Positions 6,334 through 57,102 of a stretch of 64,000 nt of DNA are shown piece by piece (within the stretch, counting starts at the first letter, position 1; every line of letters starts with the position of its first letter). A program made the position numbers and the translations under genes. The notes below the pieces were generated by a model. It was not told the DNA's origin. It saw only the letters and a program-made list of their open reading frames with translations, and made no database searches. Location: the IMG/VR virus record IMGVR_UViG_3300042339_001064, positions 1 to 64,000 of that record; one strand, written 5' to 3'. This stretch comes from a virus. Taxonomy: Duplodnaviria > Caudoviricetes.

Positions 6334-6370
6334 TATTAGTAAATAATTAAATAAAATAAAATATAAAGAA

Positions 6371-6898: not shown

Positions 6899-6908
6899 TA
6901 AATAACTA

Positions 6909-33300: not shown

Positions 33301-36300
33301 ATCCTAATAAATTTAAAAGTTTATTGTCAACTTTTATTGGTAATTCTAGTCCTTCTGGAAATAGTTTAACTCAAGAAACTTATAATAATCTTATTGAGTC
33401 TTTTGATACTGTTAAAAATAATTTTGAACAAACTAAGAAAGACTTTAATTTAGATAATGATTTTATTTCTAAATTAGATTTTGAAAATCCATTACATAAA
33501 TCTATATTAGAAAGTGTAGGAGTTAATTTAAAAAATATTGAAAGTTTTAATGGTAGTAAAACTTTTGATAATGTTATTTTAAATTCAGAATTAAATAAAG
33601 TTAATAAAGAAAAAGTAGTAGCTAGTTTAGCTCAATCTTTAGGTATTCCAAATAATAATAATCAATTAGATTTAACTCCTTATTTAGATGAAAATGGATT
33701 TTTTGATTATAATAAATATATTGAAATAATAGGTAAAGATACTTTAGATGAAATAACTATTAATAATATAAAAGAATACAATAATATTGTAGGTAGAGAA
33801 AAAAGTACTAAAAATTTAATTAATTTATTTAATAAAAATTTAGGACCAATTCAAAGTCAATTTAAAGCTCAATATCAAACTGCTATAGAAAATAACCCTG
33901 AGTTATTAAATCCTCAAGCAGGATTTGTTAGAAGTATTTATCAACAAAATTTATTTAATAAATTAGCTAATCAAACTAGAATTGATAGAATTAATTCTTT
34001 ATTAGAAATAGGGCAAGCAATTGATAAAGATAAGGAATTACGAGAAGAATTAAAGACTTTAAATGAAAATAATAAAAGTTTAGATAAATCTTTAACTTCT
34101 ATTACTGATACTTACACTAATGGATACTTTGATGCTCAAGAAAATTTAAATAATTTAGATGAAGAGTTTAATGAAATAGATAAACAATTGCAAGATAAAT
34201 TAAATTCTTATTTATCTCCAGGACTTATTGATAATTTATCTGAAGAAAAAGAAAATGAAATAAAAAATTTAATTAGAATTAAATCTGATAAGCTAAAAGA
34301 AATTAAAAAAACTCATAAAGAATTTAATTCAAGATTTAATAATGGTTTAAAATCTCAAACTTTAAATAGAAAAGCCTTAATAACTGATGCAGAAGGTAAA
34401 AGAACTGTTAAAGATGTAACTATTGATAAACAATTAGAAGAATCAATTAAAGGGGATAAAGAAAGATTAACTAAAATAAAAGAATATAGAAAAATTTTTG
34501 CTAATCTAATAAATGGTCAAGCAACTAAACAAGATTTAGATAAATTAAAAAAGAATAATAGATTATATAATAAACAATTATTAGAAGAAACAGTCTTACC
34601 TTATTATGTATCTTTTAATAAAGAGGAATTAATACAAGCATTTGATAATGATCCTGATTTATTATTAGGTATGTTTTCTATATTAGAAGATATGGGATAT
34701 GTTGGAGATATTCAAAATTATAAAAATGTTAATTTAGATACACTAACTTCTGTTGTTACTGATGGCATTATAAAGTTAAATTATAATATTAGTTTGATAA
34801 ATAATAATCAAGAAAATTTAATTAATAATTTTGACCAAAAAAATGGAGCATTATTAGTTAATAATTATATTAAAACAATTGAAGAAAATTCTGCAAAAAA
34901 TCAAGAACAACCTGCTGTTGAAACTCCTACTCAGTCAAGTGATAATGTACAAGATAATGTTATTAGTCTTATTGAAAAAAATAGTAAATTAAAGTCTGAC
35001 TTTGATGAAGATGAAATAACAAATAATTTCTACATTATTAATGATAAAGAATATAAAAGAGTTACTTCTGTAGAAAGAGATGAGTTAAACTCTAATGAAA
35101 ATTTAACTGCAGGTGCAAATGTTGGAAACTTTTTTGATTCATTAGGAAGGTTTATTTTTGGTAATTTAAATGTTACTAAGGAAAACAGTGATGTTATATT
35201 ACAAGCACAATTAGATTATTTTAAAAATAACGGAATAACATTTAACTTAAAAAAAGATAGTTATGTTGAAATGTTTAATAATTTAATAGAGCAAAGAGAT
35301 TCTTTAATACAAGAAGGATTTAAATTTATAACAGAAGAAAGAGTGCTTTATCATGCTTATGATGGTTTAAAATTTATAGGAGAAGATTCAACAGGTATTA
35401 ATGATAATACAATAGGTGTTGCAGGCACTATGGATATTATTGCTGTAGGTAAAGATGGTAAAGTAGATATTATTGACTTAAAAACTATTTCAGATAATAA
35501 AGGAAAAGATACTGAAAATTTAAAAGATAAAGAAACCAATGGTTGGTCAAAACAATTAGGTTTTTATAAAACATTATTAGAAAAAATACCATCTGTAAAA
35601 GTTAATAATACAAAAGTATTTGTTTCAAAAGTTAAATATGATATTAGTGATTTTGGTAATACAATTTCTTTTTTAAATTTTATAGAACCAAAACTTAATA
35701 CTATTAATATATCTAAGTCAGCTTTAACATTAATAAATAATTATTTAAGTATTCCTAATTTAGTTATAGATAAACCTGTAGAAATTATTACTAATACAGA
35801 AGCTATAACAGAAGAAGAAATGCCAGATTATATTTTAGAGCAACAAATGTTATTAGCTGAAGATAGTAATCCTGAGTTACCTAATAATGAAGATTTTGGT
35901 CCAGATGAATTTCAGTTAAGTCAGGCAACAGGGGTGCCTGTAACAGAAATGGAAGGTATAGTTCCTATTATTAAAACAGAAGTAATTGATTTACAAACAG
36001 ATAATAATATATTTTTTACACCTGTTAATCAAACTAAAGCAGAAAATTTAGAAATTGAAATTAATAAATTAATATCAGATAAAAATAAAGAATTAAGAAA
36101 TTTAATTGTAAATACAGAAAATGTTGATCAAAAAATAAATAAAATTACTAATAAATATAACAAATTAATTACAAAAGCTAAAAAAGAATTATTAATATTA
36201 CAAGGAAAATCTCCTATACAAAAAACTAAATTAGTTAATGAATTAGTAACTGGAGATAAAATAATAATAGATAATAAAGTAGTAACTGTAGTTAGTATAT

Positions 36301-37955
36301 ATCCAGGTGAATATACTGATGGTAATCAAAGTTGGTTTGAAGGAAATGAAACATTTAAAATAAATATAGAAAGAGAAGGCATAACTTCAGGAATATTTGA
36401 TAATAATGAAATATTTAATCCTATTAATAGTCAAAATAGTGATGAATATAGTAATTGGGAAGTTAATTTAGTTAATGATTTAGAAAATGAAACTACTGCA
36501 GAATTTGAAATAGAACCTACTGCAGAAGAAAGTGCAAGAGCAAAGTCTGTATTTGGTACTAAACCTGTATTAGATCCTGTAACACAATTAATTACAGGTC
36601 AAGCTAATCAAGTTAATTTTGAAACTAGTTCAAATAATGTCTTAGAAGGATTTGAAGATGAAGCTGATAGTAATATTGTTTCTTTAACTAGAGTAGCTTA
36701 TGTTAAATTTAATATTACTTATGATGAGCAAAATAACAAACAATATGATGTAAGTATTTTTAATAATCAAGAATTAAATAAAAAGTTTAATAATAAAATA
36801 TTAACTGAAACAGAGGTTGAAAAACTTTTTAAAGATAATGGATTATTTTTTAGTAATAAAATAGAGTCTAATAATGTTTATGTACTTAAAGATATAAATA
36901 AAAAACCAATTAATTCTTTTCAACAAGAAAATATTATATCTAAAATAACTATCCCTGAATCTAGTATATTAAATAGTATTTATGCCAATGATTTAACTAA
37001 TCAAGAAGGAGAAATAGTTGTATTAGATACAGAAAATAAATACAATAACACTTTAAAGACTGAAAAAGATTTTAGAAATAATGCAGCATTAGGAGTAGTA
37101 GTAAATAATGCTTTAGTAGCAATTATTCCTGCTAATAAAGGAAATACTAGGAATGCCCAAGTAAGAAATAAATTAACTATTACTAAGGTAGGTAATACTT
37201 TTACTGTACAACCATTTAAAGTTAAAATTAAAAAAGTTAAAAAAGATGCATTTTTATTTAATAATCAACCTATAAGAATAAATAACTTTTTAAATAAAGT
37301 TAATGGATTTAAATCTACTATTGCTTTTGTATATGAAGTAGATAAAGTTAAAAAATTAGTTAATCCTTTTGTTAATAGAGAAGTTTCTGAATTAAATATA
37401 CCTGCAGATAATTTAACTAATAATGGAGTATTTTTAATATTAGAAAAAAGTGGAGAAAATCCTATTATTATTCCTTTGCAAACTCCTAAGTTAAGAGAAT
37501 TTTTTGAAGGAACACAAGAAGATTTAGAAAATATTAAAACTATTCTTAAAACTAGTATTTCTGATGTATTTACATCACAAGATTTACAAGGAAATTATAA
37601 TGTTTTTTTAAATAGACTTAGAACTGCTTCTGATAAAAATCCAATAATAAGTCAAATTTTTAAAATTATTCCTACAAGTATTAATGAAACATCTACTAAT
37701 ACATCTCAAAAAATAAAATTAGAAAATTTAAAATTAAATTTTAATTTAGATAATATTATGGATTATTTGTGGGATACTTTAATTACATTAAATGAAAATA
37801 CTAGAGACTTTTATTCTGTAGATTTAGATCCTGAGAACTTTTATGCTAATAACTCTGTTATAATTGATTATGATAAAAATATTATAATGGATACAAAAAA
37901 TAATGATATTACATCAAATTCTATCTTTAATCAAGATAATGATGTTTATTGCTAA
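30363..37955 (+). CDS. Giant virion ejection protein with PD-(D/E)XK nuclease-like domain
   Basis: 2530 aa; Ala/Gly-rich hydrophobic region; YKRVTS...GVAGTMDII...IIDLKT...QLGFY at ~35040-35580. Confidence 0.7.
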   Translation: MPQVNHPKYGIINFPDNMSQEDIRQALIKLDQQGNKIIQPTQQKLMQQQPVAPKPVVKQEEEQTFYNQLTNKVSQGIKGVTNFFTGEEEQTPQQKISNQIPNVNQSKSVKGYGQSNIETPKPINTNAKASELANVGYRQGSSFEEQKSVIDDNYNKESEKVKNNYLALLRMAGEENPSLDQLPPNIKLLYNKDLQPITAKYNAEINKLKAQPLTNRKGLITDINQKNKRIEQLNEGIDSYTKKVENLSKQNEFLNLAKENNPLNKPSSIIPIVGIYNIYDTYSKRKAEINKAKKQLEGGKKDLQNLKNFNIDPIQILKNTPANELPQITASLEKPIKNLLESAKKFINLEDETTIRDLNKEQETNKIWTGNVIFDWFTNNVVKRERDVVKVKNYLSDTNAKGALENTTNYYYDKVEFSNAGSKNRLQQKIVEKGWDKDINAFDEKFNALLEDFPSLKNDSNKLMGTIQNLYSTPEQQQKVLSLIQDPDFQEIVTNNEALYNLNGARIGQSLKMFQAEKINELQALKVVKNLNERQQAAQDKLELRSKESGLFSADRVNYYLQQLDKGKSYIAEYGKQQVGSLATTINPESESARKLEYSADLWKAINFAQDEGNISLFDKGVEWVNLEADKNNNYQIGFNKLGQVVDVKANDMSISVKGSQRDLIENYFYSNSSELKKQAGDIYSMPGGTSAALGGTSKAIAVGIAEEAPTIAAEVAATIFTEGAAAPLLEATLLRLGAKGITAAKASRNFSKIAGQVINTTSTYAEVKHDVEKNYKEQGLDPGLLQVITTSGAISAVSQLTPGLENKYRQIGADFVADRVKKEANNVFVEDIPKVIKSLTDDLVDIKNPSVKDYLFNKELRNYAVARFSDRMGTVAKSFRKEGLQEASEETILEPLAQVLANAANASLTGNEEYNKETLRDLGFLDPETALIAGLTGGIMSSGIEVSKASSDLNETLAANFKKDNGLNTINALQAAIKDPNKFKSLLSTFIGNSSPSGNSLTQETYNNLIESFDTVKNNFEQTKKDFNLDNDFISKLDFENPLHKSILESVGVNLKNIESFNGSKTFDNVILNSELNKVNKEKVVASLAQSLGIPNNNNQLDLTPYLDENGFFDYNKYIEIIGKDTLDEITINNIKEYNNIVGREKSTKNLINLFNKNLGPIQSQFKAQYQTAIENNPELLNPQAGFVRSIYQQNLFNKLANQTRIDRINSLLEIGQAIDKDKELREELKTLNENNKSLDKSLTSITDTYTNGYFDAQENLNNLDEEFNEIDKQLQDKLNSYLSPGLIDNLSEEKENEIKNLIRIKSDKLKEIKKTHKEFNSRFNNGLKSQTLNRKALITDAEGKRTVKDVTIDKQLEESIKGDKERLTKIKEYRKIFANLINGQATKQDLDKLKKNNRLYNKQLLEETVLPYYVSFNKEELIQAFDNDPDLLLGMFSILEDMGYVGDIQNYKNVNLDTLTSVVTDGIIKLNYNISLINNNQENLINNFDQKNGALLVNNYIKTIEENSAKNQEQPAVETPTQSSDNVQDNVISLIEKNSKLKSDFDEDEITNNFYIINDKEYKRVTSVERDELNSNENLTAGANVGNFFDSLGRFIFGNLNVTKENSDVILQAQLDYFKNNGITFNLKKDSYVEMFNNLIEQRDSLIQEGFKFITEERVLYHAYDGLKFIGEDSTGINDNTIGVAGTMDIIAVGKDGKVDIIDLKTISDNKGKDTENLKDKETNGWSKQLGFYKTLLEKIPSVKVNNTKVFVSKVKYDISDFGNTISFLNFIEPKLNTINISKSALTLINNYLSIPNLVIDKPVEIITNTEAITEEEMPDYILEQQMLLAEDSNPELPNNEDFGPDEFQLSQATGVPVTEMEGIVPIIKTEVIDLQTDNNIFFTPVNQTKAENLEIEINKLISDKNKELRNLIVNTENVDQKINKITNKYNKLITKAKKELLILQGKSPIQKTKLVNELVTGDKIIIDNKVVTVVSIYPGEYTDGNQSWFEGNETFKINIEREGITSGIFDNNEIFNPINSQNSDEYSNWEVNLVNDLENETTAEFEIEPTAEESARAKSVFGTKPVLDPVTQLITGQANQVNFETSSNNVLEGFEDEADSNIVSLTRVAYVKFNITYDEQNNKQYDVSIFNNQELNKKFNNKILTETEVEKLFKDNGLFFSNKIESNNVYVLKDINKKPINSFQQENIISKITIPESSILNSIYANDLTNQEGEIVVLDTENKYNNTLKTEKDFRNNAALGVVVNNALVAIIPANKGNTRNAQVRNKLTITKVGNTFTVQPFKVKIKKVKKDAFLFNNQPIRINNFLNKVNGFKSTIAFVYEVDKVKKLVNPFVNREVSELNIPADNLTNNGVFLILEKSGENPIIIPLQTPKLREFFEGTQEDLENIKTILKTSISDVFTSQDLQGNYNVFLNRLRTASDKNPIISQIFKIIPTSINETSTNTSQKIKLENLKLNFNLDNIMDYLWDTLITLNENTRDFYSVDLDPENFYANNSVIIDYDKNIIMDTKNNDITSNSIFNQDNDVYC

Positions 37956-37980
37956 ATTATAAAAAATAAATATTAATTTT

Positions 37981-40900
37981 ATGGCTTGCTACATTAATCC
38001 TTTCCCTAATGAAATATCTCAAGATGAGTATTTATTAATTTTAAATACTAATAATTTATATGATACTTATTTAAATATTATTAATAATGGTGAAGAAGGT
38101 TTATTAGAATTTTTTAACATTAATAAAGCTGTAATTGATAAAGGAATAAATCAAATTAAAGAATTAAGAGATTTTAAAGCTGGAAAATTAACCTCAACAG
38201 ATGTTATTATTAATAATCCTATTATTAATTATTTTATAAATAATAATATAAACTCTAATATACTTAAAACTTTAGATAAATCTTTTACAGAAATTTTTTA
38301 TAAATTAGCTAATGAAAATAATAAACCTGTATCAGACTTTATTAATATAAATGATTTATTTAAATTACCTTATCAAGAAGGAGTAAAATCTAGTAATGTT
38401 CTTATTAGATTTTTAGGTTCTTTAAATGGATATAAAAATATGTTATCTAATCAGTTAACTACAGGATTAAATAATAATAATGAAGTTTTAACAGAGTATG
38501 ATAAAATTTATATTCAACAAACTATTAACTATATTAACAGTTTAGGTGTTTTTAAAGATCTTAATTATCCTATTATTTCTTTAGAAAATTTTAAAAATAA
38601 TTTAAGATTAAAAGAATTAATTAATTATTTAGGAAGAGATGGTTTATTTAAGCTAGATAATCAATTAGTAGAAGATTTAAATAATGAAAAAGAAGATCTA
38701 GAAAATAATATTCAAATATATGAAAAAGATCCTTTAACAGAAGATCCTTCAGATAAAATATCTGCTAGACTTAAATTAATGCTTAGAGGTATTAATATGT
38801 ATGATAGTTCTGGCAACAAAGTTATAAAATCTAATATTGAATTATTTTGGAAACCTGCAGATTTAATACAAAAAATGTTAATAGCAGTTTCTAATAATAA
38901 TGTACATAATTTAACAATAGATCAAATTTTAGACAAATTAACAGTATTATCTACTCAAGAATTTTCTATATTATCTCAACCTATATCTACATTTTTAAAA
39001 AGATTAAATGCTTTAAAAACAAATAATAATTTATTTAATAGTGCAGGTCCAGATATTTATACTGATTTATTTTTATATTTTCAACAATATCCTGTAGGTA
39101 TTAAAGTTTTAGAAACTGAAACTACTATATTTAAAAATAAACCAATTTATATAAATGGTATTGAAGTTATAGAAGATATAGAAGTAAAAAGTTTAAAAAT
39201 TCAAAATAAAGTTGATTATGTAAATGCAGGTTTAAATAGAGTACGAAAAGATATATTTAATAATCTTTTAAATAGTAGCGAATTACAAAATAATTTTAAT
39301 ACTAAAAATGAATTAATATTAGCTTCTAATCAAAGTGTAGCTCAATTAGCTGAAATTATTGCAACTTTATTATCACCGAGTCTTACAACAACTCAAAAAA
39401 ATATTAAAGAACAAGTTTTTAATAAAATTAAACAAACAGATTTAAAAAATGGAATAAATTTTTTAACTGTTTTAGAAGGTATTATTAATGGTGATAATAT
39501 ATTAAACTCAAGTATAATTAATAAAGTTTATAATATTAATAATGATACATTATTTCCAGTACTTAGTCCTTCAGAATTAAGTGAAGAATTAAGTATTATT
39601 AATTCTAGCATTGCTGCTATTAAAAATGGAGTAGCTTATGAAGATACAGATTTTTATAAAAAGTTTAATGGAGATATTATTAGTATGTCATTATGGGCAG
39701 ACTATGTAAAAAATGCTAGTAATCCTTTAAGTTTATCTATATTTATTGGACATAAACTTGATGAAAATATTAAAGAAGAATATTCTGATTTTACACAAGC
39801 AGAGTTATTAGCTAATTTATTTAATGTTATAAGTTCTGGTAGTATCCCTACTCCAATTTTATCAGATAAATCTAATATTTATTTAATTGATAATTACAGT
39901 CTTAATCAAGGAGCTTTAAATCAATTAAATTTTAGACAAGATCCTATTTCATATTTTAAATATTTTATTAGTTATTTAAAAATAGATAATGAATTAAATG
40001 AGCAAATTAATAATGGTATTAATATTGGAAAAAATATTGATAAAGCTATTGCTAAGCAAAAATTAATTTTATTTAATCCTGCATTTTATGAAATTGCAGA
40101 TAATGAAGAAGTATTAGAAATTTATAATACTTATGTTAATGGAGATACTGAAAATAAACAAACTGCTGAAAAACAACTTATAGATATTATTAATAAATAC
40201 CAAACTAAATTAGGAAATGATTTATATCAAAAATTTATTGATACTAAATTAATTACTTATAATGATGATTTAGAAGGATATTATATTAATAGTAATTTAT
40301 TAGATAAAACAATTTATTTAAAAACTAAAGCAGGAGTAGAGCAATTAAAAAATAATATTAAAGAAGTTGCTGTAAAATACTATGTTTTAAATACACAAGT
40401 TAAATTACTTTCAGTAGGTCATTCAGGTTTCTTTAAAGAGAATGATGAGCAAAAAAGAGTTAAAGCTATTGCTGCAAATTCTAAAAAAGTAAATTTAAAT
40501 GCTACTTATAAAAATAAACAAATTATAACTAAAAATAGTGGTAAAAGAATTATTTTAAAAGACATAGAAAATCCCGTAGTAAATAAAATAGCTGAAGATT
40601 TTTTTCTTCAAAGATTAAAAGAAGAAAAGTTTTCTAATGAAGATATTCTTAAAAAAATGGCTAATTTGTTTTCAAATTATACTTTATTAGATGGTACACC
40701 TGTCTATTCTTTAAACAGTGCTAAATTAGATAAAATAAAAGAAGAATTTAATATTGAAGCAGCACCTTTATTAGAAAAAATAAATACTTTAAAATTAGAA
40801 AATAATTTAGAAGAAGTTGCTTTAATTCAAGAAGATTATAATAAAATTTTAACTAAATATTCTAATTTAGAAAAAGAAATTAAATTCTTGCCTACTAAAA

Positions 40901-43900
40901 AAAGTAATACTACTGATGCTTCATCTGTATCCTCTTTAGATTTTTCTAAAAAATATCATGTAGGATTAAATATGTATTCTGATAACCAAGAAGAAGCTTA
41001 TAATGCAGAATTAAATGGTAATTATTTAAATAAGTTTACAGAAAATAACTTTAAAGTTATTAAAAATATAGTATATACTAAAACTAAAAGTAAAAATTCT
41101 GATATATTACTTCCTTACATGGAAAAAACATCTACAGATAATTTTACTGCACAAAGAGTATTTTTAGGAGAAGAGCCTAATTTATACCAAGCTATGATTG
41201 GAAAAATGTTTGGTTATACTTTTAATGAAAAAAATGAATCATGGACTTATAATCCAAATAATGCAATAATAGATAAAATTGTTTATGAGAGTGCTGTTAA
41301 AGCTGAAATGCCTGTAAACCAAAATGGAGATATTGTTGTATTTGATTTATTAAAAGAAATAGAAAATAAAAATATTAAAAGTTTAGAAGATGTAAATAAT
41401 TGGAAACCTGAACAAAATTTTGAAGAAAATTATGTTATAGATATTCCTATTACTGAAGATAGATTACAAGTAGAAACTCCAGAACATTTAGAAGGTCAAG
41501 CAGATATAGGCACACAAATTGAAGGACTTATAAGTAATGGTATAGATGCAGACTCTGAATTTGTAATTAATAATAAAACATTTAATGGGCTTGAATTAAC
41601 AAATTTATTAAATCAATTAAGAGTTAATTATGTAGACAAAGGAGAAAATGATTTATATAATGAATTTTTTAAAGAAGATAGAATTTATGATTTAGTTGCT
41701 TCATTATATAATGATAGAGAATATTTAAATTTAGAGACTTTAACTCCTGAAAAATTACCCGATTTATTAAGTAATCCTCAATTTGGATTAGCTTTAGTTT
41801 CAAAAATACAATCTTTAATAAAACAAAATGTAGTTAAAACAAAAATTAATGGTATTCAATTTTTTAATGGAGTTGTTGCTAATGATAAAAGTTTAAATAT
41901 ATTAGTAGAAGATGTTATAGATGCAAATGGTAAAACTATTAAAAAATTAATATTTGAAGTAGCAGTACCTGCATTTAGTGAAAACATGTTTAAAGCAGCA
42001 TTAAATTCTGAAACAGGAAAGTTAGATGTAAATTTAATTCCAGAAGAATTAAGAGAGTTTGTTGTATATAGAATACCTACAGAAGCAATGTATTCTATGT
42101 TTGCAGTTAGAATTAAAAAATTATTACATCCTTCATCAGGACCTATTATATATATGCCAGAAGGCCCCACAAATATTGCAGGTTTTGATATGGATATTGA
42201 TAAACTATTTGGTATTGTAAAAAATTATTATTCAAAAGATAATAAATTAATTCCTATTTCTTATTCTTTAGAAAAAGATAGTAATATTAATTTTAAAGAA
42301 TGGATTAAAGAAAATATTACTGATACTGACCAATTAACTTTAAATGATTTATTTTTAGAAAAAAGTAATTTAATTGAAAAAAATCCAGATTTATTTAAAG
42401 AAAGATCTGATATTAAAAAATTAAAAGAAGAAAAAAATAAAATAATCTCTGATTTAGAAAAAGATTTAATAGAAGAATATGATCTTTCTGGAAAACAATT
42501 ATCTACAGCACTTTCAAGACAATTAAAAAATTATCCAAAATATTTAGAAATTAAAGAAACTCTTAATACTTTTTATGACTCTATTAAAATAGAAGAAAAT
42601 GAAAGTTTAAAAAATTCTGTAAAAGAAATAAATAAACAAATAAATGATATTTATGCTATTTATAAAGATTCTTGGAAAAATTTAAATGTTGCAGCACAAC
42701 TTAGTACTAGTCAATATCAAAATCTTTATTTAGATATTATTAAAGGGGTTGTTACTAATGAAAAAAGTGTAAATGAATATATTACAGGAAATGGATTTCA
42801 AAGATTAGAAGATATAAATACTGATTTAGAAAATAGAAATACTTCTAAAGAAAGTAAAAAAGATAAATTATTAAGAGCTCAAAATCCTTATAGAGATGCT
42901 AATTTAGTTAACTCTTTAAATACTTTTAGAGCTATTATGTCAGGTGCACAAAATATTGGACCTGCAGCTATTTATAACCAATTTGTAGCTTTAAATCAAT
43001 TTTTAAAGAATTTTGGAATTGAAAGTACAGTAGGATTTAATGTTAAATCAATTAATTTATTAAGTAAAAATCAAAAAGATACTGAACAATTTAATATATT
43101 TAAAGGTTTAAATAATTATGTAACTAAATCTGGGTTAAAACCAAATATGGCTATTGCTGAGTTATTAGCACAAGCAGTAGATAATATTAAGAAAGATTTA
43201 TCTGTTCCTTTAAATTTACAAAAACAATTAGTAGGATTAAGATCTTTATTATATATTACAGGTTTAGATGAAAATATTGTTGATAGAATATTTACAGATT
43301 ATCCTCTAGTAGATAAAATTATTAAAGAATCTATTGAATCAGATGATATTAATAGATATAAAAATAATATATTTAAATATAATTTATATGATTTATCAGA
43401 AAAACCTAGTAAATTTATATTTTTAGATAAAGATGAAAAAATAAACATTAATTTAGAATTATTAAATAAAAAATTTAAACCAGGTAATTTAGTATCAGAC
43501 ATATTATCTTCTGATATTTCAGAAGAAGAAATAGTTTATTTTTTACATGAAATGTTAGAATTAGCTAATGAGTTATCTGATATTATAAACACTATTAATT
43601 ATTATCAAAAAGGGTTAGGTAAAAACTTTGCTAGTTTAATTTTTTCTTATGATAAAACAAAGCAATTATTAAATTCTACTTTATCAAATAACTTTAGTAT
43701 TGATTTGTCAAATAGTTTTATAGAATATAAACTTCAAAAGTTAGTTGAAATTACAGAAAATATATATAGTAATTTTAATATTAATTTAGAAGATCCAAAT
43801 TTTAATTTCTTTAAACAATATTTTCAAAGACTTAATAATTCAAAATATTTAGGATATTTATTTAATGCTAATTTAAGTTCTAACTTATATTTAAATTTAT

Positions 43901-46900
43901 TAGCAGAGTTTGGTTCTGCAGAAAATCTTAAAAAAGCATATTTTAAAGAAGTTTCTGATTTAAAATTAATTTTTGGACAAAATACTATAATAGAAAAAAC
44001 TGGAGATAATTATGTAAAATCAGATGTGCAAAATTTAAATTTAAATATTTTAAATTCTATTATTAGATTTGTAGATAATAATCCTTTCTTTGAAGAAAAT
44101 ATAAAAAATATAACAATTTTAAAACAACTTTATCCTTTTGATATACAATTTTTAGGCCAATCAGAATCTTTTAATAGTTCTTTGAATCCTAAAAATATTA
44201 TTGATATAATGTCAATAGATAATAAAACTTTATATTACGGAGGTAATCAAGATATTATTACTGAAGATAATGTATTTAGTGCACAAGAAATTACTCAAAA
44301 GTTATTTTTTATTAATATGGTTCAATCAGGATTATTTAGTGGAAAAAACAATAAAGGAAGAAGTAATGTATTTGATTTGTTATTTTTAGATAATATTATT
44401 TTACAAAACTTTTTATTATATATTAATAAACCATATTCTTATTTATTAAATAATTCAGTAGTAAACCCAGAAATACTTAGAAATAGTTCAAATGTTTTAA
44501 GTGCTTATACTGATTTTATTCTTTTAAATAATCCAGAAGGATTTAATAAATATACTCGAAGTTTAGAAGATACTTATTTATTAGATAATAATACTAAAAA
44601 ATTAATTAAAAATATATTTGTTAATAGTACCCCTATAACATTAAATAATAATTATTTAGATGTTTATGTTATAGATAAATCTATTATACTTCCTACAGAT
44701 GATCCTAAAAAATTAGTAAAATTAGGTAACTTTTTAAATTCTACTTATATTACTTTTAATGATAACGGATCTAAAAAATTATTTAAATTAGTATATAGTT
44801 TAGGTAATAATTTATTATATAAAAATCTAGGAATTATTGGTGGTAATTTATTATCAAATGAATTCAGTGGAAAAATAAATCCTATTGCATTTAATTTTTT
44901 AGATGAAGTTATAAGTAATTTAGGTATTACTCGTTCTAATATAGAAAGTAGTGATGTAAATCTTGCAAATCAAGTTATTGGTACTTGGAGTAAACCAGCA
45001 ATTCAAACTCCTGTAAATACAACTGTTGAAACTATATCTACACCTCAAAATCCTATTAAGATTTATTCTGATGGATCTGACATAAAAGGAACAGGTAAAG
45101 TAGGTTTTGGTGCTGTATATGAATATAATAATAAAGAGTATGCTTTAACAGGCACAGAAGAAGGCTTTGAAGTTAAAGATTTACAAAAAATGTTTCCTGA
45201 AGCTAAATTTAGTAATCCTACTATGGAAATGTTAGCTCTTGTAAGAGTACTTCAATCATTCTCTAATAATTCTGAACATCTTTCTATTTATCAAGATTAT
45301 AAGGGTGCTGTAAACTATAATGAATTATGGAACTACTCTGAAGGATCTCAGCAAAGAGAGTCAAAACCTTGGAATGCTAAAGAAAGTTATATCAAATATT
45401 TAGTTGCACAAGCTGTAGATGCTATAAAGAAAATTGAAACTAACGGTGGTTCAGTAAAAATTAACTGGGTAAAAGGACATGCTGGTAATAAAATGAATGA
45501 CAGAGCTGACTTTTATGCTAAAAGTAGAGAAAACTTTAATAATTTAACAGAGCCTCTTAGTAAAACATTTATTGAACCTACTACTCAACCATCTACTGAT
45601 GTTAAAACTAAACAAGAAGAACAAAGTAAATTATTTCAATTACCTTCAACAGAAGGTCAAGTAGCATCAGAAAAAACTATTAGAGATTTAGCTGCAAGAA
45701 TGTCTGATAGAATAGGTATGCCTGTTAAGTTTGAATCTGATAGAACTAAACAATATAAAGGTAAAATTGAAAATAATATTGCTTATGTTAATTTAGCTTA
45801 TGCTACATTAGATACTCCTATACATGAGATATTAGGTCATCCTATTATTAGAGCAATTAAAGGTAAAAATAAAGGTTATGTAGTAAAAGGATCTACTATA
45901 ACAGATAAAGCTACTAATAAAACTTATATTGTTAAAGAAGTAACTGAAGATTATGATTTTGTCATAGAAGAAAATGGTAAAGATATAACTGTTGATAGTT
46001 CTACTTTTGAATGGAATACTAATGCAATATCTCAATTATACCAAAATCTACTTAAAGAACTTGAATATGGTAAAGGTAAAGAAGTATTAGATAGGATTAA
46101 AAGGGATTACAAAGAGTATGAAAAAAATTTAACAGCAGTTAAATCTGAAATAAACAGAATACAAAATATTATTTCTAAGGGTTATCTATACGAAATAGAT
46201 GGGAATCTTTTTAACAAAAAAGATGCTATAGAATACTCTATAGATAATAATTATGATTTTGAAGAAGAAATAGAATTTGATTCTTATGCAAATTTAGAAA
46301 TTAACTTATTAAGACAACAGCAAATATTAGAAGAAAAAAATTCTGTTTCTAAAAGTAATGTTGCTGAAGATTTTATTATAGATGATAAAGAAATAAGAAT
46401 TGTTTATAATTTAGAAAAAGTTCAAGAAGAAGCTATTGTAGAACTTCTTGGTATGATGACTGCTGAAAAACTTGATAATGTTAAAGACGGTAAATTAATA
46501 TCTTTACTTAAAAGATTACTTAAAGAAATGAAACAATTTATTCGTTCTTTAATTAATCAGAAAGAAGTTGAGATTGATAAATTACCTGATAATATGACTA
46601 TTAATGATTTAGCTGATTTATTAGCTTATTCTAATAGTAAACTTATATTACCTGGGTATGAAGTAGAATATACTACTCCTGATAATATGAAGTTTAAAAC
46701 TTATCAAGAAGCTAGTAATCATATTAGTCAATTAGCTAAAAATGTTAAAGATGTTGATTTAGATAATATTTCTTTATTAAAAGAAAAACCTAAATATAAA
46801 ATAGGAGATTATTTTGGACAATATGAAAAAGGATTTGTAGAACAAGAAGGTCTAAATAAAATAGAAACACAAGAAGAAGCAGACTATTTAAATTCAAAAG

Positions 46901-48300
46901 AGTATAGACTTCAAGAGCCTGATACAATAAAAAACTTTATAGAAAAAAACAAAGAATACGAACAATCTAAAGAAATTATAGAAGAATGGAAAAAAGTAAA
47001 TAACATTCAATATAATCCTGAAGAAATATATTCAAGAGGTCAAGAATTTGTATCTGTACTAGGGGCTTACTCTGATTTTGATGTTAATCTTATGATGCAG
47101 AATCTTCTTCAACATATAGAGGATAATGAAAAAGCTGGAGGTAAATTTGTTATATCTGCATTTACTAAACCTGTTGATAAAACAATTGGTCACTTAGAAG
47201 GTGGTGGAGGAAAAATTAAGTTTAAAATATACCCACAATCTAATGATATATTATGGGCTGCTAATACTGATGTTTATAGTGGTAGTGTTTGGGATGCTAG
47301 TGAAAAAATTAATAAAGATAAAAAATCTGAATTACTTGGAGTTAGTTATACTAAATATCCTTCTTTATATAATGTGGGTACTGTACAACCTAATTTAGCT
47401 TCTGTTGTAGATAATTTAGCACATCATCATAATGAACTTGGTATTGCTTTAACAGGTAATAACTTTAGATTAGAATATGATGAAGATATTCCTTATACTA
47501 CTAAAAAGATTATTGAGGGTATAAATAAAATATTAGACCAAAAATATGGCAAGTTAGTTAACCCTGAGATTAAAAAAGTTACAATTATACCTAATGAATT
47601 TGAATTTTGGCAACAAGATATGAATGAGGATGGAGGTTTAGATAGATTTAGAATAAGTATATTTAAAAAAGATGATAAATGGTTTGAAGAATTTTTTGAT
47701 ACTTATGGAGAATCTGAAAGTGTTAGAGAAATAGATTATAATGAAGTAAAATTAAAATTTGATGAAGCTCTATCTTCTAATTCAACTTTAACAAGAGGTA
47801 GAGGTATTCAACCAACTCAAACTAAAGATAATTTAAAAGAAAGTATTGAGAGTGTTAAGAGTAAAGTAACTAATGAAATTGAAGATTCTGATGGAATAGG
47901 TTCTTTTGGTTATGATAATAATGGTATTAGATATGTTAAAAGTGATGATGGTACTTATTCTAAATCATCTGATAAATTTAAAACTTGGGTAGAAATAACT
48001 GAAGAAGAGTATGAAAGTAATAAACCTAAAAGAGATATTAAACAAAAAGAATACATATCTCAAGCATTAATTAACACTAAAATAGCAGCATTAAAAGAAG
48101 TAGCTAAAAAATATCCTAGAAGTTTAATTAGAAGTGAAGTTAAACCTGTTAAACCTTTTGATACTAATTCTTATGAACAATTTAATGATGAATTACCATT
48201 TCAAAAAATACTTTCTACTGAAGATAAATTTTTTATTCAGTATATTAAAGAAGAAGCACTTAAAAATAATATAGATCTTTCAAAAAATAATTGTAAATAA
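37981..48300 (+). CDS. crAss-like virion RNA polymerase (two-barrel, single chain) with RNase H and zincin-like fusions
   Basis: YRIPTE...GFDMDIDK catalytic loop (42181-42204), TDA and GTQ motifs, AVDNIK; 3439 aa. Confidence 0.88.
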   Translation: MACYINPFPNEISQDEYLLILNTNNLYDTYLNIINNGEEGLLEFFNINKAVIDKGINQIKELRDFKAGKLTSTDVIINNPIINYFINNNINSNILKTLDKSFTEIFYKLANENNKPVSDFININDLFKLPYQEGVKSSNVLIRFLGSLNGYKNMLSNQLTTGLNNNNEVLTEYDKIYIQQTINYINSLGVFKDLNYPIISLENFKNNLRLKELINYLGRDGLFKLDNQLVEDLNNEKEDLENNIQIYEKDPLTEDPSDKISARLKLMLRGINMYDSSGNKVIKSNIELFWKPADLIQKMLIAVSNNNVHNLTIDQILDKLTVLSTQEFSILSQPISTFLKRLNALKTNNNLFNSAGPDIYTDLFLYFQQYPVGIKVLETETTIFKNKPIYINGIEVIEDIEVKSLKIQNKVDYVNAGLNRVRKDIFNNLLNSSELQNNFNTKNELILASNQSVAQLAEIIATLLSPSLTTTQKNIKEQVFNKIKQTDLKNGINFLTVLEGIINGDNILNSSIINKVYNINNDTLFPVLSPSELSEELSIINSSIAAIKNGVAYEDTDFYKKFNGDIISMSLWADYVKNASNPLSLSIFIGHKLDENIKEEYSDFTQAELLANLFNVISSGSIPTPILSDKSNIYLIDNYSLNQGALNQLNFRQDPISYFKYFISYLKIDNELNEQINNGINIGKNIDKAIAKQKLILFNPAFYEIADNEEVLEIYNTYVNGDTENKQTAEKQLIDIINKYQTKLGNDLYQKFIDTKLITYNDDLEGYYINSNLLDKTIYLKTKAGVEQLKNNIKEVAVKYYVLNTQVKLLSVGHSGFFKENDEQKRVKAIAANSKKVNLNATYKNKQIITKNSGKRIILKDIENPVVNKIAEDFFLQRLKEEKFSNEDILKKMANLFSNYTLLDGTPVYSLNSAKLDKIKEEFNIEAAPLLEKINTLKLENNLEEVALIQEDYNKILTKYSNLEKEIKFLPTKKSNTTDASSVSSLDFSKKYHVGLNMYSDNQEEAYNAELNGNYLNKFTENNFKVIKNIVYTKTKSKNSDILLPYMEKTSTDNFTAQRVFLGEEPNLYQAMIGKMFGYTFNEKNESWTYNPNNAIIDKIVYESAVKAEMPVNQNGDIVVFDLLKEIENKNIKSLEDVNNWKPEQNFEENYVIDIPITEDRLQVETPEHLEGQADIGTQIEGLISNGIDADSEFVINNKTFNGLELTNLLNQLRVNYVDKGENDLYNEFFKEDRIYDLVASLYNDREYLNLETLTPEKLPDLLSNPQFGLALVSKIQSLIKQNVVKTKINGIQFFNGVVANDKSLNILVEDVIDANGKTIKKLIFEVAVPAFSENMFKAALNSETGKLDVNLIPEELREFVVYRIPTEAMYSMFAVRIKKLLHPSSGPIIYMPEGPTNIAGFDMDIDKLFGIVKNYYSKDNKLIPISYSLEKDSNINFKEWIKENITDTDQLTLNDLFLEKSNLIEKNPDLFKERSDIKKLKEEKNKIISDLEKDLIEEYDLSGKQLSTALSRQLKNYPKYLEIKETLNTFYDSIKIEENESLKNSVKEINKQINDIYAIYKDSWKNLNVAAQLSTSQYQNLYLDIIKGVVTNEKSVNEYITGNGFQRLEDINTDLENRNTSKESKKDKLLRAQNPYRDANLVNSLNTFRAIMSGAQNIGPAAIYNQFVALNQFLKNFGIESTVGFNVKSINLLSKNQKDTEQFNIFKGLNNYVTKSGLKPNMAIAELLAQAVDNIKKDLSVPLNLQKQLVGLRSLLYITGLDENIVDRIFTDYPLVDKIIKESIESDDINRYKNNIFKYNLYDLSEKPSKFIFLDKDEKININLELLNKKFKPGNLVSDILSSDISEEEIVYFLHEMLELANELSDIINTINYYQKGLGKNFASLIFSYDKTKQLLNSTLSNNFSIDLSNSFIEYKLQKLVEITENIYSNFNINLEDPNFNFFKQYFQRLNNSKYLGYLFNANLSSNLYLNLLAEFGSAENLKKAYFKEVSDLKLIFGQNTIIEKTGDNYVKSDVQNLNLNILNSIIRFVDNNPFFEENIKNITILKQLYPFDIQFLGQSESFNSSLNPKNIIDIMSIDNKTLYYGGNQDIITEDNVFSAQEITQKLFFINMVQSGLFSGKNNKGRSNVFDLLFLDNIILQNFLLYINKPYSYLLNNSVVNPEILRNSSNVLSAYTDFILLNNPEGFNKYTRSLEDTYLLDNNTKKLIKNIFVNSTPITLNNNYLDVYVIDKSIILPTDDPKKLVKLGNFLNSTYITFNDNGSKKLFKLVYSLGNNLLYKNLGIIGGNLLSNEFSGKINPIAFNFLDEVISNLGITRSNIESSDVNLANQVIGTWSKPAIQTPVNTTVETISTPQNPIKIYSDGSDIKGTGKVGFGAVYEYNNKEYALTGTEEGFEVKDLQKMFPEAKFSNPTMEMLALVRVLQSFSNNSEHLSIYQDYKGAVNYNELWNYSEGSQQRESKPWNAKESYIKYLVAQAVDAIKKIETNGGSVKINWVKGHAGNKMNDRADFYAKSRENFNNLTEPLSKTFIEPTTQPSTDVKTKQEEQSKLFQLPSTEGQVASEKTIRDLAARMSDRIGMPVKFESDRTKQYKGKIENNIAYVNLAYATLDTPIHEILGHPIIRAIKGKNKGYVVKGSTITDKATNKTYIVKEVTEDYDFVIEENGKDITVDSSTFEWNTNAISQLYQNLLKELEYGKGKEVLDRIKRDYKEYEKNLTAVKSEINRIQNIISKGYLYEIDGNLFNKKDAIEYSIDNNYDFEEEIEFDSYANLEINLLRQQQILEEKNSVSKSNVAEDFIIDDKEIRIVYNLEKVQEEAIVELLGMMTAEKLDNVKDGKLISLLKRLLKEMKQFIRSLINQKEVEIDKLPDNMTINDLADLLAYSNSKLILPGYEVEYTTPDNMKFKTYQEASNHISQLAKNVKDVDLDNISLLKEKPKYKIGDYFGQYEKGFVEQEGLNKIETQEEADYLNSKEYRLQEPDTIKNFIEKNKEYEQSKEIIEEWKKVNNIQYNPEEIYSRGQEFVSVLGAYSDFDVNLMMQNLLQHIEDNEKAGGKFVISAFTKPVDKTIGHLEGGGGKIKFKIYPQSNDILWAANTDVYSGSVWDASEKINKDKKSELLGVSYTKYPSLYNVGTVQPNLASVVDNLAHHHNELGIALTGNNFRLEYDEDIPYTTKKIIEGINKILDQKYGKLVNPEIKKVTIIPNEFEFWQQDMNEDGGLDRFRISIFKKDDKWFEEFFDTYGESESVREIDYNEVKLKFDEALSSNSTLTRGRGIQPTQTKDNLKESIESVKSKVTNEIEDSDGIGSFGYDNNGIRYVKSDDGTYSKSSDKFKTWVEITEEEYESNKPKRDIKQKEYISQALINTKIAALKEVAKKYPRSLIRSEVKPVKPFDTNSYEQFNDELPFQKILSTEDKFFIQYIKEEALKNNIDLSKNNCK

Positions 48301-48309
48301 AATAAATAT

Positions 48310-51300
48310 ATGTCATTAGCCTGCGATTTAAATATAAATATTGCCAAAAGAGGTATTTTAAAAGGAATTTCTAATAAATATATTCCTGAAGAATATGAAA
48401 ATAATCAATCTGATTTTAAAGATGATGAATTACAAATACCCCTTAAAAATAAAAATAAAGATGAAGTAGCAGAAATATTTAAACCTATTTTATCAACTAT
48501 AGAAAAAGACTATAAAGGTAATATAAAAGCAGAAATAGTTAAAAATTCTATACTTGATCCTTTTTATATAAAATTTAATGTTAATAGAAATTATATTCTT
48601 GACCAGTTACAACTAACTGTAAAAGATATAAATGAACTTCAAACTAAAGAAACTATTAATACTAAAATTGTAGACCCTTTGTTAAATGTACAAAAAGGGC
48701 TTACAGATCCCTTAATTAGACAAAAATATTTTTCTGATGGAGATACTACTACAGATAAAGAAGTATTAACTAAGATTGCAAATTCTAGTCACCCTTTAAG
48801 TGGATTAGCTAAACAATTAATTCCTTTTAGTAAAGGAATAAAATTTAATTTATTACCTATTAATTATATTAATGTTAATAATAATAAATCTTCTGGAGTA
48901 TATAAAAGTTTTGGAATAAATAATGAAGAAATAATTGAAATTGCAGAATTTGCAAAGTTTAGAGGTTTAGGGTCTGAACCTACAATTATTCATGAAATTC
49001 TACATGGATTAACTTTTAATTGGTTAGATTCTGTAAATCAATCAGATCCATTATATAAAGAATTTGAAAGACTTTATAATGAAACAATTTCAAAAATAGG
49101 TATTGCTAATAATTATGGTTTAACTAAAATTGAAGAATTTGCAGTAGCTTTATTTACAGATGAAGAATTTATTAATAAAATTAAAGAATTACCTTCAGAT
49201 AATCCTACTAAATATGTTAATTTATTTGAAAATATATTAAATACTTTATTAAAAGTATTTAATATAACTGATTCTAAAAGTACTTTATATACAGATGCAT
49301 TTGCAATTGTTTCAAATATAATTAATATTCAAAAAGAATTAGAAAACATTTTTAATATTCAAAAAGAAATAGAAGAAGCTTTTTTACCTACTCTTGATGA
49401 ATTTGAAAACTTACAAGATGATATAGATAATTATTATATTGATGATTATTCAGAATATACACCTGAACTTCCTGAAGATACTTTTCAAGAAAATGTTTTA
49501 GAAGAAAAAACTGTCATAGAAAGTAAATCAACTATAAATCCAAATTTAATTCCAGATAATATTGAAGAACAATTTAATGAGTTTGAATCTTTAAGAAATA
49601 AAGATGCAGAAACTACTGAAGAGTTTGACAAACAAATTTTATATTCTTTAATATTACCAAATGTTAGTAAAGATAAATTCTTTGAAATATTTTCTCAAAA
49701 CAATCCAGAAGAATTTAATAAATATAGGCAAAAAGAAGTTAAAAGAATTATTAATAACTTTGCAGAAAAATTTGGAATTACTATTGAGCAAATTAATCAA
49801 TACCAAGATAGATATGTTTTAGCTAATAATAAAACATTAAGTTATAATGGTGTAGCTAATTTAGCAAATAAAACTATTAAATATTTAGAAGGAGATGAGG
49901 CTGCATTAACAGAAGAAGTAGCTCACTTTATGGTAGCTATGTTACCTAAAACAAGTCCTGAGTATGTTAATTTAAAAAATTATATTAGTAGAACTCCTGA
50001 ATATCAACTTTATTATGAATCTTACTTAGAAGTTTATAATGGAGATGTAGATAAAACTGAGGAAGAAATAATGGGTAAGGTTGTAGCTAATAGTTTATTA
50101 GGAGTTACAGAAAATGTACCTTTATCTTTAAAAAGTCTTATTACTTCAATTTTAAACTACATTAATAACTTTTTTAATCCAGAGTATAGAAAAGCTTTTC
50201 AAAGAAGTGTAGATAATATTAATCATTTATTTTTTACAGAAAATTTTGATACTAATTTTTCTGAAGCTAATATAACTTTTGATGAATTATATAGTTTAAA
50301 ATTTACAACTTCTAATGATGAAAAAGTATTTAATTCTTCTACAGATCAAATATTAAATAATATTTTACAAAATTTAAAAAACCAAAGACAAAGGTTTATT
50401 GAAAATAAACAAACTGATTTAATTAAAAGTATTGATACTTTAATTGATATAATTACAGAAAAAGATTCAAATATTGATAATTCTGATAGAATTATTAATT
50501 ATATACAAATGTCTTTATTAGAAATACAAAAAGTTGAACAATCTTTAAATAATTTTGAAAAAAGTGGTATTTTACAAGATTTAGAAAAGAAAAATTTTAA
50601 TAACTTAACAAAAGAACAACAAGAAGCTCAAACTCAAGAAGATAGAGCTAACCATTTACAATATGTAGCTGCAGCTATTACAACTTTACAAAATTTAAAT
50701 TCATTAATTACTTTAATTGAATGGAATTTTAAAGGATTTAATAATACTTTTCAATCTTTATCAGATTATAATAAAATTATAGATACTTTACCTGATTCTA
50801 ATGAAAATAAAATATTTTCAGAAGCATTAAAATTAACAAAAGCTACATATAGAGATGCAAAACTTGGAACTATAAAAGGAGTTTATCAAGATCTTTCTCA
50901 AAAATTATTAGATGTAACTTTTAAAACTTTAAATACTCAAGATCAAAAAAACTTTTTAGAATTAACACAAACAAATTTAACTCCTAATGTTAAAAAACAA
51001 GAAGATGTAAATAATGATATATCTCCTTTAGGTACAGTTAAAGATCTTATTACAGGAGAATTTAATATATCTTCTTTTAAAGAAAATATAATGCCTTTAA
51101 CTTTCCAAAAAGATGTTTATTTAAGATCTGTTGACAATGCTAATGCAGTTTTAAGGCAATTTGCATTAATGGCTTCAGCAAAAGATGTCCATGAATATAA
51201 TTTATTTCAAGAAAAATTAAATCAATTAGGTGAATTTAATGAAACATGGCTTTCAGCAAAAGATGAAAAAGGTAAACTTACATTTAAGTTATTGCAAAAA

Positions 51301-55188: not shown

Positions 55189-55569
55189 TTAATAATACTC
55201 ATCTTTATAGTCATCAAAGCAATCATCAAACTCAGCATAGTTTGTAAAAAGTTCTTCCCCTGGCTCAATATTTTTAAGTGCTATTGTAACATCTTTAGTG
55301 TTATCTAGATTAGGGGTATAACTATGATTTAAAAAATTTGATAAATCACAAGAAGAATAATAATAATTATCTTCTATCCAAGCATATTTATTAAAATATT
55401 CTTGTTGAGCATCGGGCATTTGTTTTACTTTATCTATAGAAATTTTAATATCTACTCCTTCTTCAAACTTCCATACTATAGAATCTTTTGGTATAAATTC
55501 TGTAGCAAATAAACCTAACCCCATTTTAGGATTAGTAGCTACTTTAACTTCTGTTTTAAATAAAAACAT
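55189..55569 (-). CDS. SET-domain protein (putative lysine methyltransferase)
   Basis: GLGLFATEFIPK, FLNHSYTPN, ALKNIEPGEELFTNY. Confidence 0.9.
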   Translation of the reverse strand: MFLFKTEVKVATNPKMGLGLFATEFIPKDSIVWKFEEGVDIKISIDKVKQMPDAQQEYFNKYAWIEDNYYYSSCDLSNFLNHSYTPNLDNTKDVTIALKNIEPGEELFTNYAEFDDCFDDYKDEYY

Positions 55570-56229: not shown

Positions 56230-57102
56230 TTAAAATATATATCTAATTTTTATTTTTAAATCTTCATTAATTAATTGAGTAAGTTCATTAATTAATTTTT
56301 CTTTTAATTGCCATTTGTATCTAACATTATTTCCACCATACTTACTTATTTTTTCTTCTTGTATTTCTGGATTCCATAATAAAGATTCATTTAATCCTCT
56401 TTCTAAATTAATTTTATTTAAGTTAGCATTATGAGTTAAAAATATAATTTCTAAACCACATTGGTCTTTAAATTCTTGACTAACTTCATTGTTAATTATA
56501 TTAAATAATTCTTTATAATCATTTAAATAATTGTCATAATAAATAACAGGACTTAAGTTAAAATGTACTTCCCAACCTGCTTCAAATAATTTTTGAGCTC
56601 CTTTAATTCTAGTTAATGTTAAACTTGTAGACTTTTCTACTTGAGTTCTAATATTTTCTGGTATTAAAGAATGTCTTATTCTAATTTTTTTATTAGAGTC
56701 ATAATTTAATAACAAAGGATTATACCATTTAGTTGCAAATGTAGCACCCATTCTTGGATGATCTTTAAAGTAATCAAATACTCTTTTCCAATCATATTTA
56801 TTCCAATATTTATTTATATCTACATCACACCCAATATCTACAAGGTATAAACTATTATGAACTTGATTAGGAGTTTTAATTAAAGGTTTAGTATTAACCC
56901 AATTATTACAAGCTAATAAAATTTCATTTATATTAGTATTAAGATAAACAGCTGGTCTATTAAATCTATGTACATAACAGTATTGACAATAAGGATTATT
57001 GTTTTGGTCTCTACACCCTAAAATAAAATTGGCAGAAGTAGCATCGCCACTTCTACCATTATCTTTACATAATATTGTTTTAGTTTTTTGAAATTTTTCC
57101 AT
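56230..57102 (-). CDS. Spore photoproduct lyase-family radical SAM protein
   Basis: NGRSGD, GC...CQYCY, DIGCDVD, FATK, RIRHSL.P, RI......AGWEVHFNLSPVI, RYK. Confidence 0.8.
   Translation of the reverse strand: MEKFQKTKTILCKDNGRSGDATSANFILGCRDQNNNPYCQYCYVHRFNRPAVYLNTNINEILLACNNWVNTKPLIKTPNQVHNSLYLVDIGCDVDINKYWNKYDWKRVFDYFKDHPRMGATFATKWYNPLLLNYDSNKKIRIRHSLIPENIRTQVEKSTSLTLTRIKGAQKLFEAGWEVHFNLSPVIYYDNYLNDYKELFNIINNEVSQEFKDQCGLEIIFLTHNANLNKINLERGLNESLLWNPEIQEEKISKYGGNNVRYKWQLKEKLINELTQLINEDLKIKIRYIF

Follow-up and report, generated by a model that had tools for sequence, protein, structure and literature searches.

Three giant open reading frames (ORFs) of the viral record IMGVR_UViG_3300042339_001064 (IMG/VR; positions 1 to 64,000, the 64,000-nucleotide stretch that was analysed here and is called the window) encode 8,221 amino acids together and only four cysteines, all of which lie at the ends by which neighbouring proteins face one another. 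Protein 1 ends ...NDVYC*, the virion RNA polymerase (RNAP) starts MAC and ends ...NNCK*, and protein 3 starts MSLAC, whilst the outer ends, the N-terminus of protein 1 and the C-terminus of protein 3, have no cysteine. On sequence evidence the window holds the virion-cargo module of a distant, AT-rich (21-33% G+C) crAss-like phage. The pattern is conserved in its relatives, where the cysteines are lost and gained in pairs with gene fusion and fission, and this supports four functional cysteines, each C-terminal one paired with the N-terminal one of the next protein in the series protein 1, RNAP, protein 3. The facing cysteines are, on balance, probably head-to-tail disulfide tethers, by analogy with cyanophage A4. 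The three genes and the four codons are as follows:

30363-37955, + strand: protein 1 (gp47-like), 2530 amino acids, 285.8 kDa; its sole cysteine is the last residue
37981-48300, + strand: virion RNAP (gp50/gp66-like), 3439 amino acids, 394.3 kDa; cysteines at 3 and 3438 only
48310-55068, + strand: protein 3 (gp49/gp65-like), 2252 amino acids, 260.4 kDa; its sole cysteine is residue 5
37950-37952, + strand: Cys2530 codon of protein 1, TGC, the final codon before TAA
37987-37989, + strand: Cys3 codon of the RNAP, TGC
48292-48294, + strand: Cys3438 codon of the RNAP, TGT
48322-48324, + strand: Cys5 codon of protein 3, TGC

A first-pass annotation of this DNA had claimed that the three giants hold four cysteines, all at facing termini with none internal or at the outer ends, and ORF calls combined with a cysteine count, along with inspection of the raw sequence at the two junctions, bear this out exactly. 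Of the 8,221 in-frame codons of the giants only 4 are TGY, compared with 61 and 365 of 8,218 when the other two frames are read; base composition is thus ruled out as the cause, because TGY is common in both unused frames. The 11 other ORFs of at least 300 amino acids in the window have 1.8% cysteine (104/5,709), a frequency at which about 150 would be expected in the giants (Poisson P(<=4) ~2e-58), and the probability of four random residues falling one each in the four inner 5-residue end windows is ~3e-12.

The depletion is wider than the giants themselves: as three upstream ORFs (3,079 amino acids) are also without cysteine, there is a block of 11,300 amino acids with 4 cysteines, beginning directly after the muzzle gene. 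Strong depletion relative to the rest of the proteome is what characterizes the cysteine suppression of Schitoviridae type, and the window block shows it too. Schitoviridae and the window are alike in having giant virion RNA polymerases with companions, ejected into the host and almost free of cysteine; the N4-type polymerase, which we take from the literature to be of a different kind from the crassvirus RNAP, differs in being a single polypeptide with no cysteine at all. The near-absence of cysteine from Schitoviridae ejection proteins (N4 gp50, DEV gp71-gp73) has been explained by passage through the periplasm, and in the available part of that study no terminal cysteine pairs are reported (PMC11445570). 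No Schitoviridae were among the matches listed in two tblastn searches, and no direct comparison with N4 proteins was made.

The arrangement is kept by the closest relatives of all three proteins. A word-indexed protein search gave 12 RNAP homologues with 39-85% whole-length identity to the window's RNAP (alignment A2; 2396-3439 amino acids), every one of which has exactly two cysteines, at 3-4 and at -1 to -4 (counting back from the C-terminus, -1 being the last residue). Their C-terminal extensions vary from 190 to 1,100 amino acids and differ in content, the terminal-cysteine rule being kept nonetheless, and they end in a common ...EEDFSSVPPC.. tail. A thirteenth match (P0013; 28% identity, 4360 amino acids) has one cysteine at -4 and an N-terminus without one. 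All 21 homologues of protein 1 end in cysteine or in cysteine plus one residue (the sole cysteine in 20), and 43 of 44 homologues of protein 3 have a cysteine at 3-5 (the sole one in 41). Scans of IMG/VR and of metagenome contigs found four loci of the window's clade, L001 and L002 in the former and L005 and L006 in the latter, and all four obey the rule; the nearest relatives derive from environmental metagenomes, with one contig labelled marine. Further out, amongst 57 cr85_1-like IMG/VR loci, the terminal cysteines are kept in 48/48 unsplit RNAPs, 55/55 copies of protein 3 and 50/50 C-terminal parts of protein 1.

Five of the cr85_1-like loci (L036, L047, L053, L055 and L060) have a split RNAP with no cysteine at the new ends, and were considered as rule-breakers. 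This was rejected and the splits were read as introns: the pieces adjoin one another when placed on the intact protein, and the inserts of 0.9-3.9 kb hold endonuclease-sized ORFs of 181-286 amino acids. An Rfam group I intron lies at 17054-17199 within the insert of L060; an Rfam scan of L036 and L055 gave no match at the gathering score, and introns are inferred in L036, L047, L053 and L055.

A survey across the order covered 21 genomes: five of the window's clade, seven Steigviridae (including crAss001 and phi14:2), four Intestiviridae and five Suoliviridae. They comprise 15 of 74 phage records matching the RNAP core, chosen to span the families, together with phi14:2 and the five clade loci; the sampling by name did not extend to Crevaviridae and some other families. 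At 31 of the 33 breaks between chain members there is a cysteine within 11 amino acids on both sides, at two on one side, and at none on neither, whilst outer ends never carry one (0/18 N-termini, 0/16 C-termini). Internal cysteines number 147 in 132,493 residues. All three proteins are separate in Steigviridae, and the RNAP modules of crAss001 (gp47/gp50/gp49) and phi14:2 (gp67/gp66/gp65), whose RNAPs are homologous to that of the window, occupy the same position and follow an identical terminal-cysteine rule. In phi14:2 the cysteines are at -1 in gp67, at 3 and -2 in gp66 and at 3 in gp65; in crAss001 they are at -3 in Gp47, at 5 and -9 plus one internal in Gp50, and at 5 in Gp49. The RNAPs of gut Steigviridae (L003-L004, L065, L007-L063) carry 1-2 conserved internal cysteines ~1,000-1,080 residues from the C-terminus, which the window's clade and phi14:2 lack.

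crAss001-like phages have the gene of protein 1 on one strand and those of the RNAP and protein 3 on the other, and the C-terminal cysteine of protein 1 is still kept. Gene order and coupled translation do not explain the rule, since here protein 1 lies on the other strand. The first-pass annotation had proposed a chain in gene order, an order that is not general.

A search with the RNAP core through 1.8 billion cluster representatives, some of them cut at contig ends, listed 150 matches, 114 of at least 1900 amino acids. When the 11 residues at each end of these long RNAPs are inspected, 74 proteins have a cysteine at both ends, 23 have one solely at the C-terminus and 10 solely at the N-terminus, whilst 7 have none there. 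Of the 23 C-only proteins, 16 place the catalytic motif after residue 2400, a position that would fit a fusion of protein 1 to RNAP. Cysteine makes up 6.8% and 8.0% of residues in the two end windows and 0.28% inside, a 24- to 29-fold enrichment.

These figures bear on an alternative in which chance or relaxed selection has left cysteines, purged internally, at flexible ends where they are tolerated. N4-like phages are known to suppress cysteine in the proteins that they eject (PMC11445570), which lends this some plausibility. Tolerance, however, predicts scattered and variable terminal cysteines, outer ends included, whilst those found are near-invariant and absent from outer ends, and both the end enrichment and the placement in the window speak against it; we regard it as extremely improbable.

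A link between the facing ends is also supported by what happens when genes are joined or divided. Intestiviridae (four genomes) have the RNAP fused to protein 3; here the protein 1/RNAP pair is kept, and the fused protein retains its N-terminal cysteine, with no C-terminal cysteine and none at the mapped joint. Suoliviridae (five genomes) have protein 1 fused to the RNAP in giant ORFs of 4,460-5,794 amino acids, the fusion being shown by BLAST against Gp47 and RNAPs for four giants (cr273_1 is not among them). These giants have no N-terminal cysteine, and in 4/5 of the genomes the one break that is left retains its pair. The same modules thus occur in the same N-to-C order in both families, with a peptide bond where the window has a cysteine pair; unlike these fused forms, the window's giant proteins are separate.

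Within the window's own clade there is an extra link. In L002 a separate adaptor of 127 amino acids, which starts MSKC and ends ...DNCK, directly precedes protein 3 (MSLAC...), making a four-member chain with 6 cysteines in which the inner links have a cysteine at both ends. In L001, L005 and L006 the 127-residue module and protein 3 form a single in-frame fusion; the alignment of L001 shows a joint without cysteine where the split forms show ...NCK / MSLAC..., and the fused proteins of L005 and L006 have zero internal cysteines. The window carries the end of this module on its RNAP:

48211-48297, + strand: RNAP tail shared with the L002 adaptor, the last 29 residues (amino acids 3411-3439), 86% identity over 29 amino acids by BLASTP; holds Cys3438

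From this match the adaptor tail is, in the window, fused to the RNAP; the RNAP/adaptor break and its two cysteines are absent, and the RNAP has no internal cysteine.

The linear order of protein 1, RNAP and protein 3, C-terminus to N-terminus, which the first-pass annotation had read from the window, is thus upheld by the paired breaks, by the empty outer ends and by the loss or gain of pairs with fusion or an extra link. As the C-to-N relation is evolutionarily interchangeable with a peptide bond, a covalent link between cysteines is the simplest reading. In the gp66 preprint, cleavage of the fused forms into their parts is suggested; the cysteine rule instead suggests that continuity is what is kept.

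There is the possibility that each terminal cysteine acts alone, through a third partner (portal, ring or muzzle), a modification or a redox switch, with no link between cargo proteins. Disulfides are formed by tail and portal-vertex proteins of crAss001, being described in the tail, in gp57 and at the portal vertex of its virions (PMC10172136), and some RNAP representatives have a cysteine at one end only. In p-crAssphage (L064, Carjivirus communis BK010471), gp47 (5012-7585; 857 amino acids) has its sole cysteine at -2 and is followed by a protein, gp46, without any; this unpaired cysteine lies outside the three-protein chain. Independent functions are disfavoured, because they would not respect the polarity between inner ends, which nearly always have a cysteine, and outer ends, which never do; moreover, both sides of a break come and go together with fission and fusion. 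We consider this explanation unlikely. Split inteins, lipoprotein signals and ligation chemistry were dropped by reasoning: the cysteines lie so near the ends (0-10 residues) that no such domain or signal would fit.

The precedent for the chemistry is cyanopodophage A4 (Anabaena phage A-4L), in whose pre-ejectosome electron cryo-microscopy has revealed that Cys1715 of gp27 and Cys5 of gp26 are joined by a disulfide, the C-terminal helix of gp27 lying in a cleft of gp26 (PNAS 2025, PMC12002296). In the genome of Anabaena phage A-4L, ORF27 (1717 amino acids) has its sole cysteine at 1715 (-3) and ORF26 (1114 amino acids) its sole cysteine at 5. Both systems are thus composed of consecutive giants, with a sole cysteine near one C-terminus followed by a sole cysteine near the next N-terminus, the positions being -1 / 3 and -2 / 5 in the window and -3 / 5 in A-4L. 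As the same signature is a real disulfide in A4, it provides a disulfide precedent for the window's pairs. A4 differs in belonging to Saffermanviridae, in having one link rather than two or three, and in a chain without RNA polymerase; its bond is described as locking a folded five-fold ring, whereas the window proteins are known from sequence alone.

A facing pair could also be held by a bridging metal or another non-disulfide contact that stabilizes a docked three-protein complex. The pairing evidence does not separate these chemistries, and the reducing cytoplasm, the site of assembly, would not prevent a metal bridge from forming. Two thiolates alone are, however, a poor site for the usual metals, no conserved histidine or further cysteine was seen beside the terminal cysteines, and the same signature in A4 is a disulfide. 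The form in which the first-pass annotation had raised a metal, if taken as one site shared by four termini, fits poorly with two-member chains that have 2 cysteines (Intestiviridae, Suoliviridae) and with the four-member chain that has 6 (L002). We hold metal or other contacts to be quite unlikely. The disulfide tether is the reading that we favour, and the disulfides in the tail and in gp57 of crAss001 virions also count towards it; we infer its chemistry, by analogy with A4, and the time of its formation.

Several observations weigh against a disulfide-linked chain. The disulfide in crassviruses is drawn by analogy only, and the A4 precedent is an analogy because no homology was detected between gp27 and protein 1 or between gp26 and protein 3: when the alignments were compared by hhalign, protein 1 with ORF27 and protein 3 with ORF26, the probabilities were 0.4% and 0.2%. 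Synthesis in a reducing cytoplasm and release of gut crassviruses into an anoxic lumen offer no obvious moment for such a bond to form. Exceptions to the rule also exist. The protein 3 homologue P0075 has no cysteine, and the nearest C-terminal cysteine of cr273_1 is at -50. Of four Suoliviridae fusions, two have a lone cysteine close to where the joint is predicted (cr4_1 Cys2180, cr7_1 Cys2625). Amongst the long RNAPs seven have no terminal cysteine, and the 10 N-only cases and 6/23 C-only cases are unexplained. Many internal cysteines occur in some families, up to 34 in one RNAP, so that the picture of a cysteine-free thread is not universal. Lastly, the gp055/gp056 break of IAS virus has a cysteine on one side only. 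The RNAP of this virus (L066, NC_049978; 14450-23432) is annotated as overlapping gp055 ('molybdenum carrier') and gp056, with ambiguous bases and X in the translations, and the split is probably a frameshift or sequence-quality problem rather than a true one.

Under the disulfide reading, each facing pair would form an intermolecular bond after docking, once the particle leaves the reducing cytoplasm, and the three proteins would be tied head to tail, giving a single chain with 8,221 residues and a mass of ~940 kDa. The disulfide would do for these proteins what a peptide bond does in the fused-gene families. Since cysteines at the very ends leave almost no side branch, the linked chain could act as one thread, which might pass the tail in single file, N to C, and be reduced in the host cytoplasm with release of the RNAP. 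This 'ejection train' is more speculative than the bond itself, and we are rather doubtful of it. Its extension to the whole order, by which the RNAP and its two giant companions would form a redox-stitched thread of 0.7-1 MDa, restored by a terminal cysteine pair wherever the giant gene has been cut in evolution and divided into active parts by cytoplasmic reduction, is put forward no more than tentatively. Alternatively, the bond could fasten a folded cargo complex in the way described for A4. Co-folding of amino acids 2281-2530 of protein 1 (alignment A3) with amino acids 1-300 of the RNAP (A2), run without controls, gave a score of 0.04 against a mark of 0.32, which counts neither for nor against the link. 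Thioredoxin genes are annotated near the RNAP module in Intestiviridae (L064 30402-30680 and 31400-31669; L074 28699-28968), and a phage enzyme of this kind, acting on thiols and disulfides, could be relevant to the making or breaking of the proposed bonds and to its timing.

Crassviruses are the most abundant phages of the human gut, and the question addressed is how ~0.7-1 MDa of protein, an RNA polymerase included, is delivered through their narrow tail. The three proteins were not resolved in the crAss001 atlas, in which packing and mutual interactions are proposed to set the order of exit. A conserved head-to-tail tether, if real, would give that order a physical basis, and would explain both the free fusion and splitting of the genes and the equal dosing of the three proteins. 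With its use in the unrelated cyanophage A4, terminal-cysteine stitching would then be a device common to podophage ejection proteins in general. The rule can be read from sequence, as terminal cysteine pairs in otherwise cysteine-poor neighbours, and could help to find linked cargo in other phages. A literature search, with subscription papers and supplements outside it, found no report of the rule for Crassvirales. The gp66 preprint nowhere uses the terms cysteine, disulfide or Cys, and the cargo cysteines are unmentioned in the crAss001 atlas as far as its cysteine and disulfide terms, cargo passages and mass spectrometry methods are concerned; reduced and unreduced virion samples were run for that atlas.

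The genes that precede the giants in the window are, in order:

14075-14755, + strand: tail ring protein 2 (Pfam CrAss_Ring_2, E=6e-17); 7 cysteines
15112-16062, + strand: tail ring protein 1 (Pfam CrAss_Ring_1, E=7e-27); 7 cysteines
16065-21074, + strand: muzzle-like virion protein, 1669 amino acids; 23 cysteines; PHROG 15100 'virion structural protein', E=2e-26
21074-26251, + strand: cysteine-free ORF, 1725 amino acids; 0 cysteines
26263-29007, + strand: cysteine-free ORF, 914 amino acids; 0 cysteines
29027-30349, + strand: cysteine-free ORF, 440 amino acids; 0 cysteines

The muzzle-like protein, which also has a weak match to Pfam crAss_MUZ_C (E=5e-4, below cut-off), is the final cysteine-bearing protein ahead of the cysteine-poor block. 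The three cysteine-free ORFs follow the muzzle gene as in crAss001 and phi14:2, and appear by position to correspond to gp45/gp46, the small cargo proteins of crAss001, with one ORF in addition; their equivalents in L006 likewise have 0 cysteines. The order of the module (ring, muzzle, small cargo, RNAP flanked by two giants) is that of phi14:2 and crAss001, in both of which the presence of the cargo proteins in the virion is reported from mass spectrometry. By homology and synteny with these two phages, the six proteins encoded after the muzzle would be carried in the particle and would have to pass the tail.

The window RNAP is 24-29% identical to annotated Crassvirales RNAPs over amino acids 928-1445 (tblastn), matching those of cr85_1, crAss001, IAS virus and Carjivirus with E down to 6e-21, and has the catalytic DxDxD motif as GFDMDID at amino acid 1403 (42187-42201). 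A sequence search of the PDB with amino acids 900-1500 of the core gave weak CsgF matches only, with no polymerase. Relative to the RNAPs of crAss001 and phi14:2, beyond this level of identity over the core, the window RNAP adds a C-terminal extension of ~1,100 amino acids. The conserved core comprises approximately amino acids 1-2330, and the lineage-specific extension contains an RNase H domain at amino acids 2359-2515 (45055-45525; Pfam RNase_H E=1e-12, PHROG 531). The slot between the core (~2,330 amino acids) and the cysteine tail is variable, being occupied by RNase H in the window and by PIF1/AAA_30-type helicase domains in P0011-P0013, and some relatives of protein 3 (P0044, P0063) carry PF18760; from sequence, these variable domains in ejected proteins look like effector-domain swapping.

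Pfam and PHROGs gave no family for protein 1, protein 3 or the three cysteine-free ORFs, except for a PD-(D/E)XK-like stretch at amino acids 1664-1743 of protein 1 (35352-35591; Pfam PDDEXK_1 E=7e-4, below cut-off). Protein 3 has a zincin-type HEILH motif at amino acid 228 (48991-49005), which the consensus of 22 homologues shares; it is a bare motif, with no family match from the Pfam or PHROG models, and a zincin domain (HExxH) is stated for the phi14:2 gp65 orthologues in the gp66 preprint.

In all four clade relatives, a ferritin-like gene follows the RNAP, ahead of the next chain member; it is absent from the window. The genes encode 162-163 amino acids (Pfam Ferritin E=1e-19 for L002), and the product has one internal cysteine and no terminal one:

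L002, 16414-16902: ferritin-like gene
L001, 14896-15387: ferritin-like gene
L005, 10297-10785: ferritin-like gene
L006, 17200-17688: ferritin-like gene

Just downstream of the cargo module, on the minus strand, the window encodes a SET-domain protein (55189-55569; Pfam E=3e-13) and a spore-photoproduct-lyase-like protein (56230-57102; E=5e-22), both with homologous ORFs at the same place in L006. Towards the other end of the window, two cysteine-rich proteins (4.2% and 3.6% cysteine) are encoded on the plus strand at 3542-4534 and 4570-6333, the former matching tail-fibre family PHROG 8469 (E=1.5e-5) and the latter no family. This pair also faces one another with terminal cysteines (...FLGC* then MCNNYPNC...), which, given so many cysteines, may be chance.

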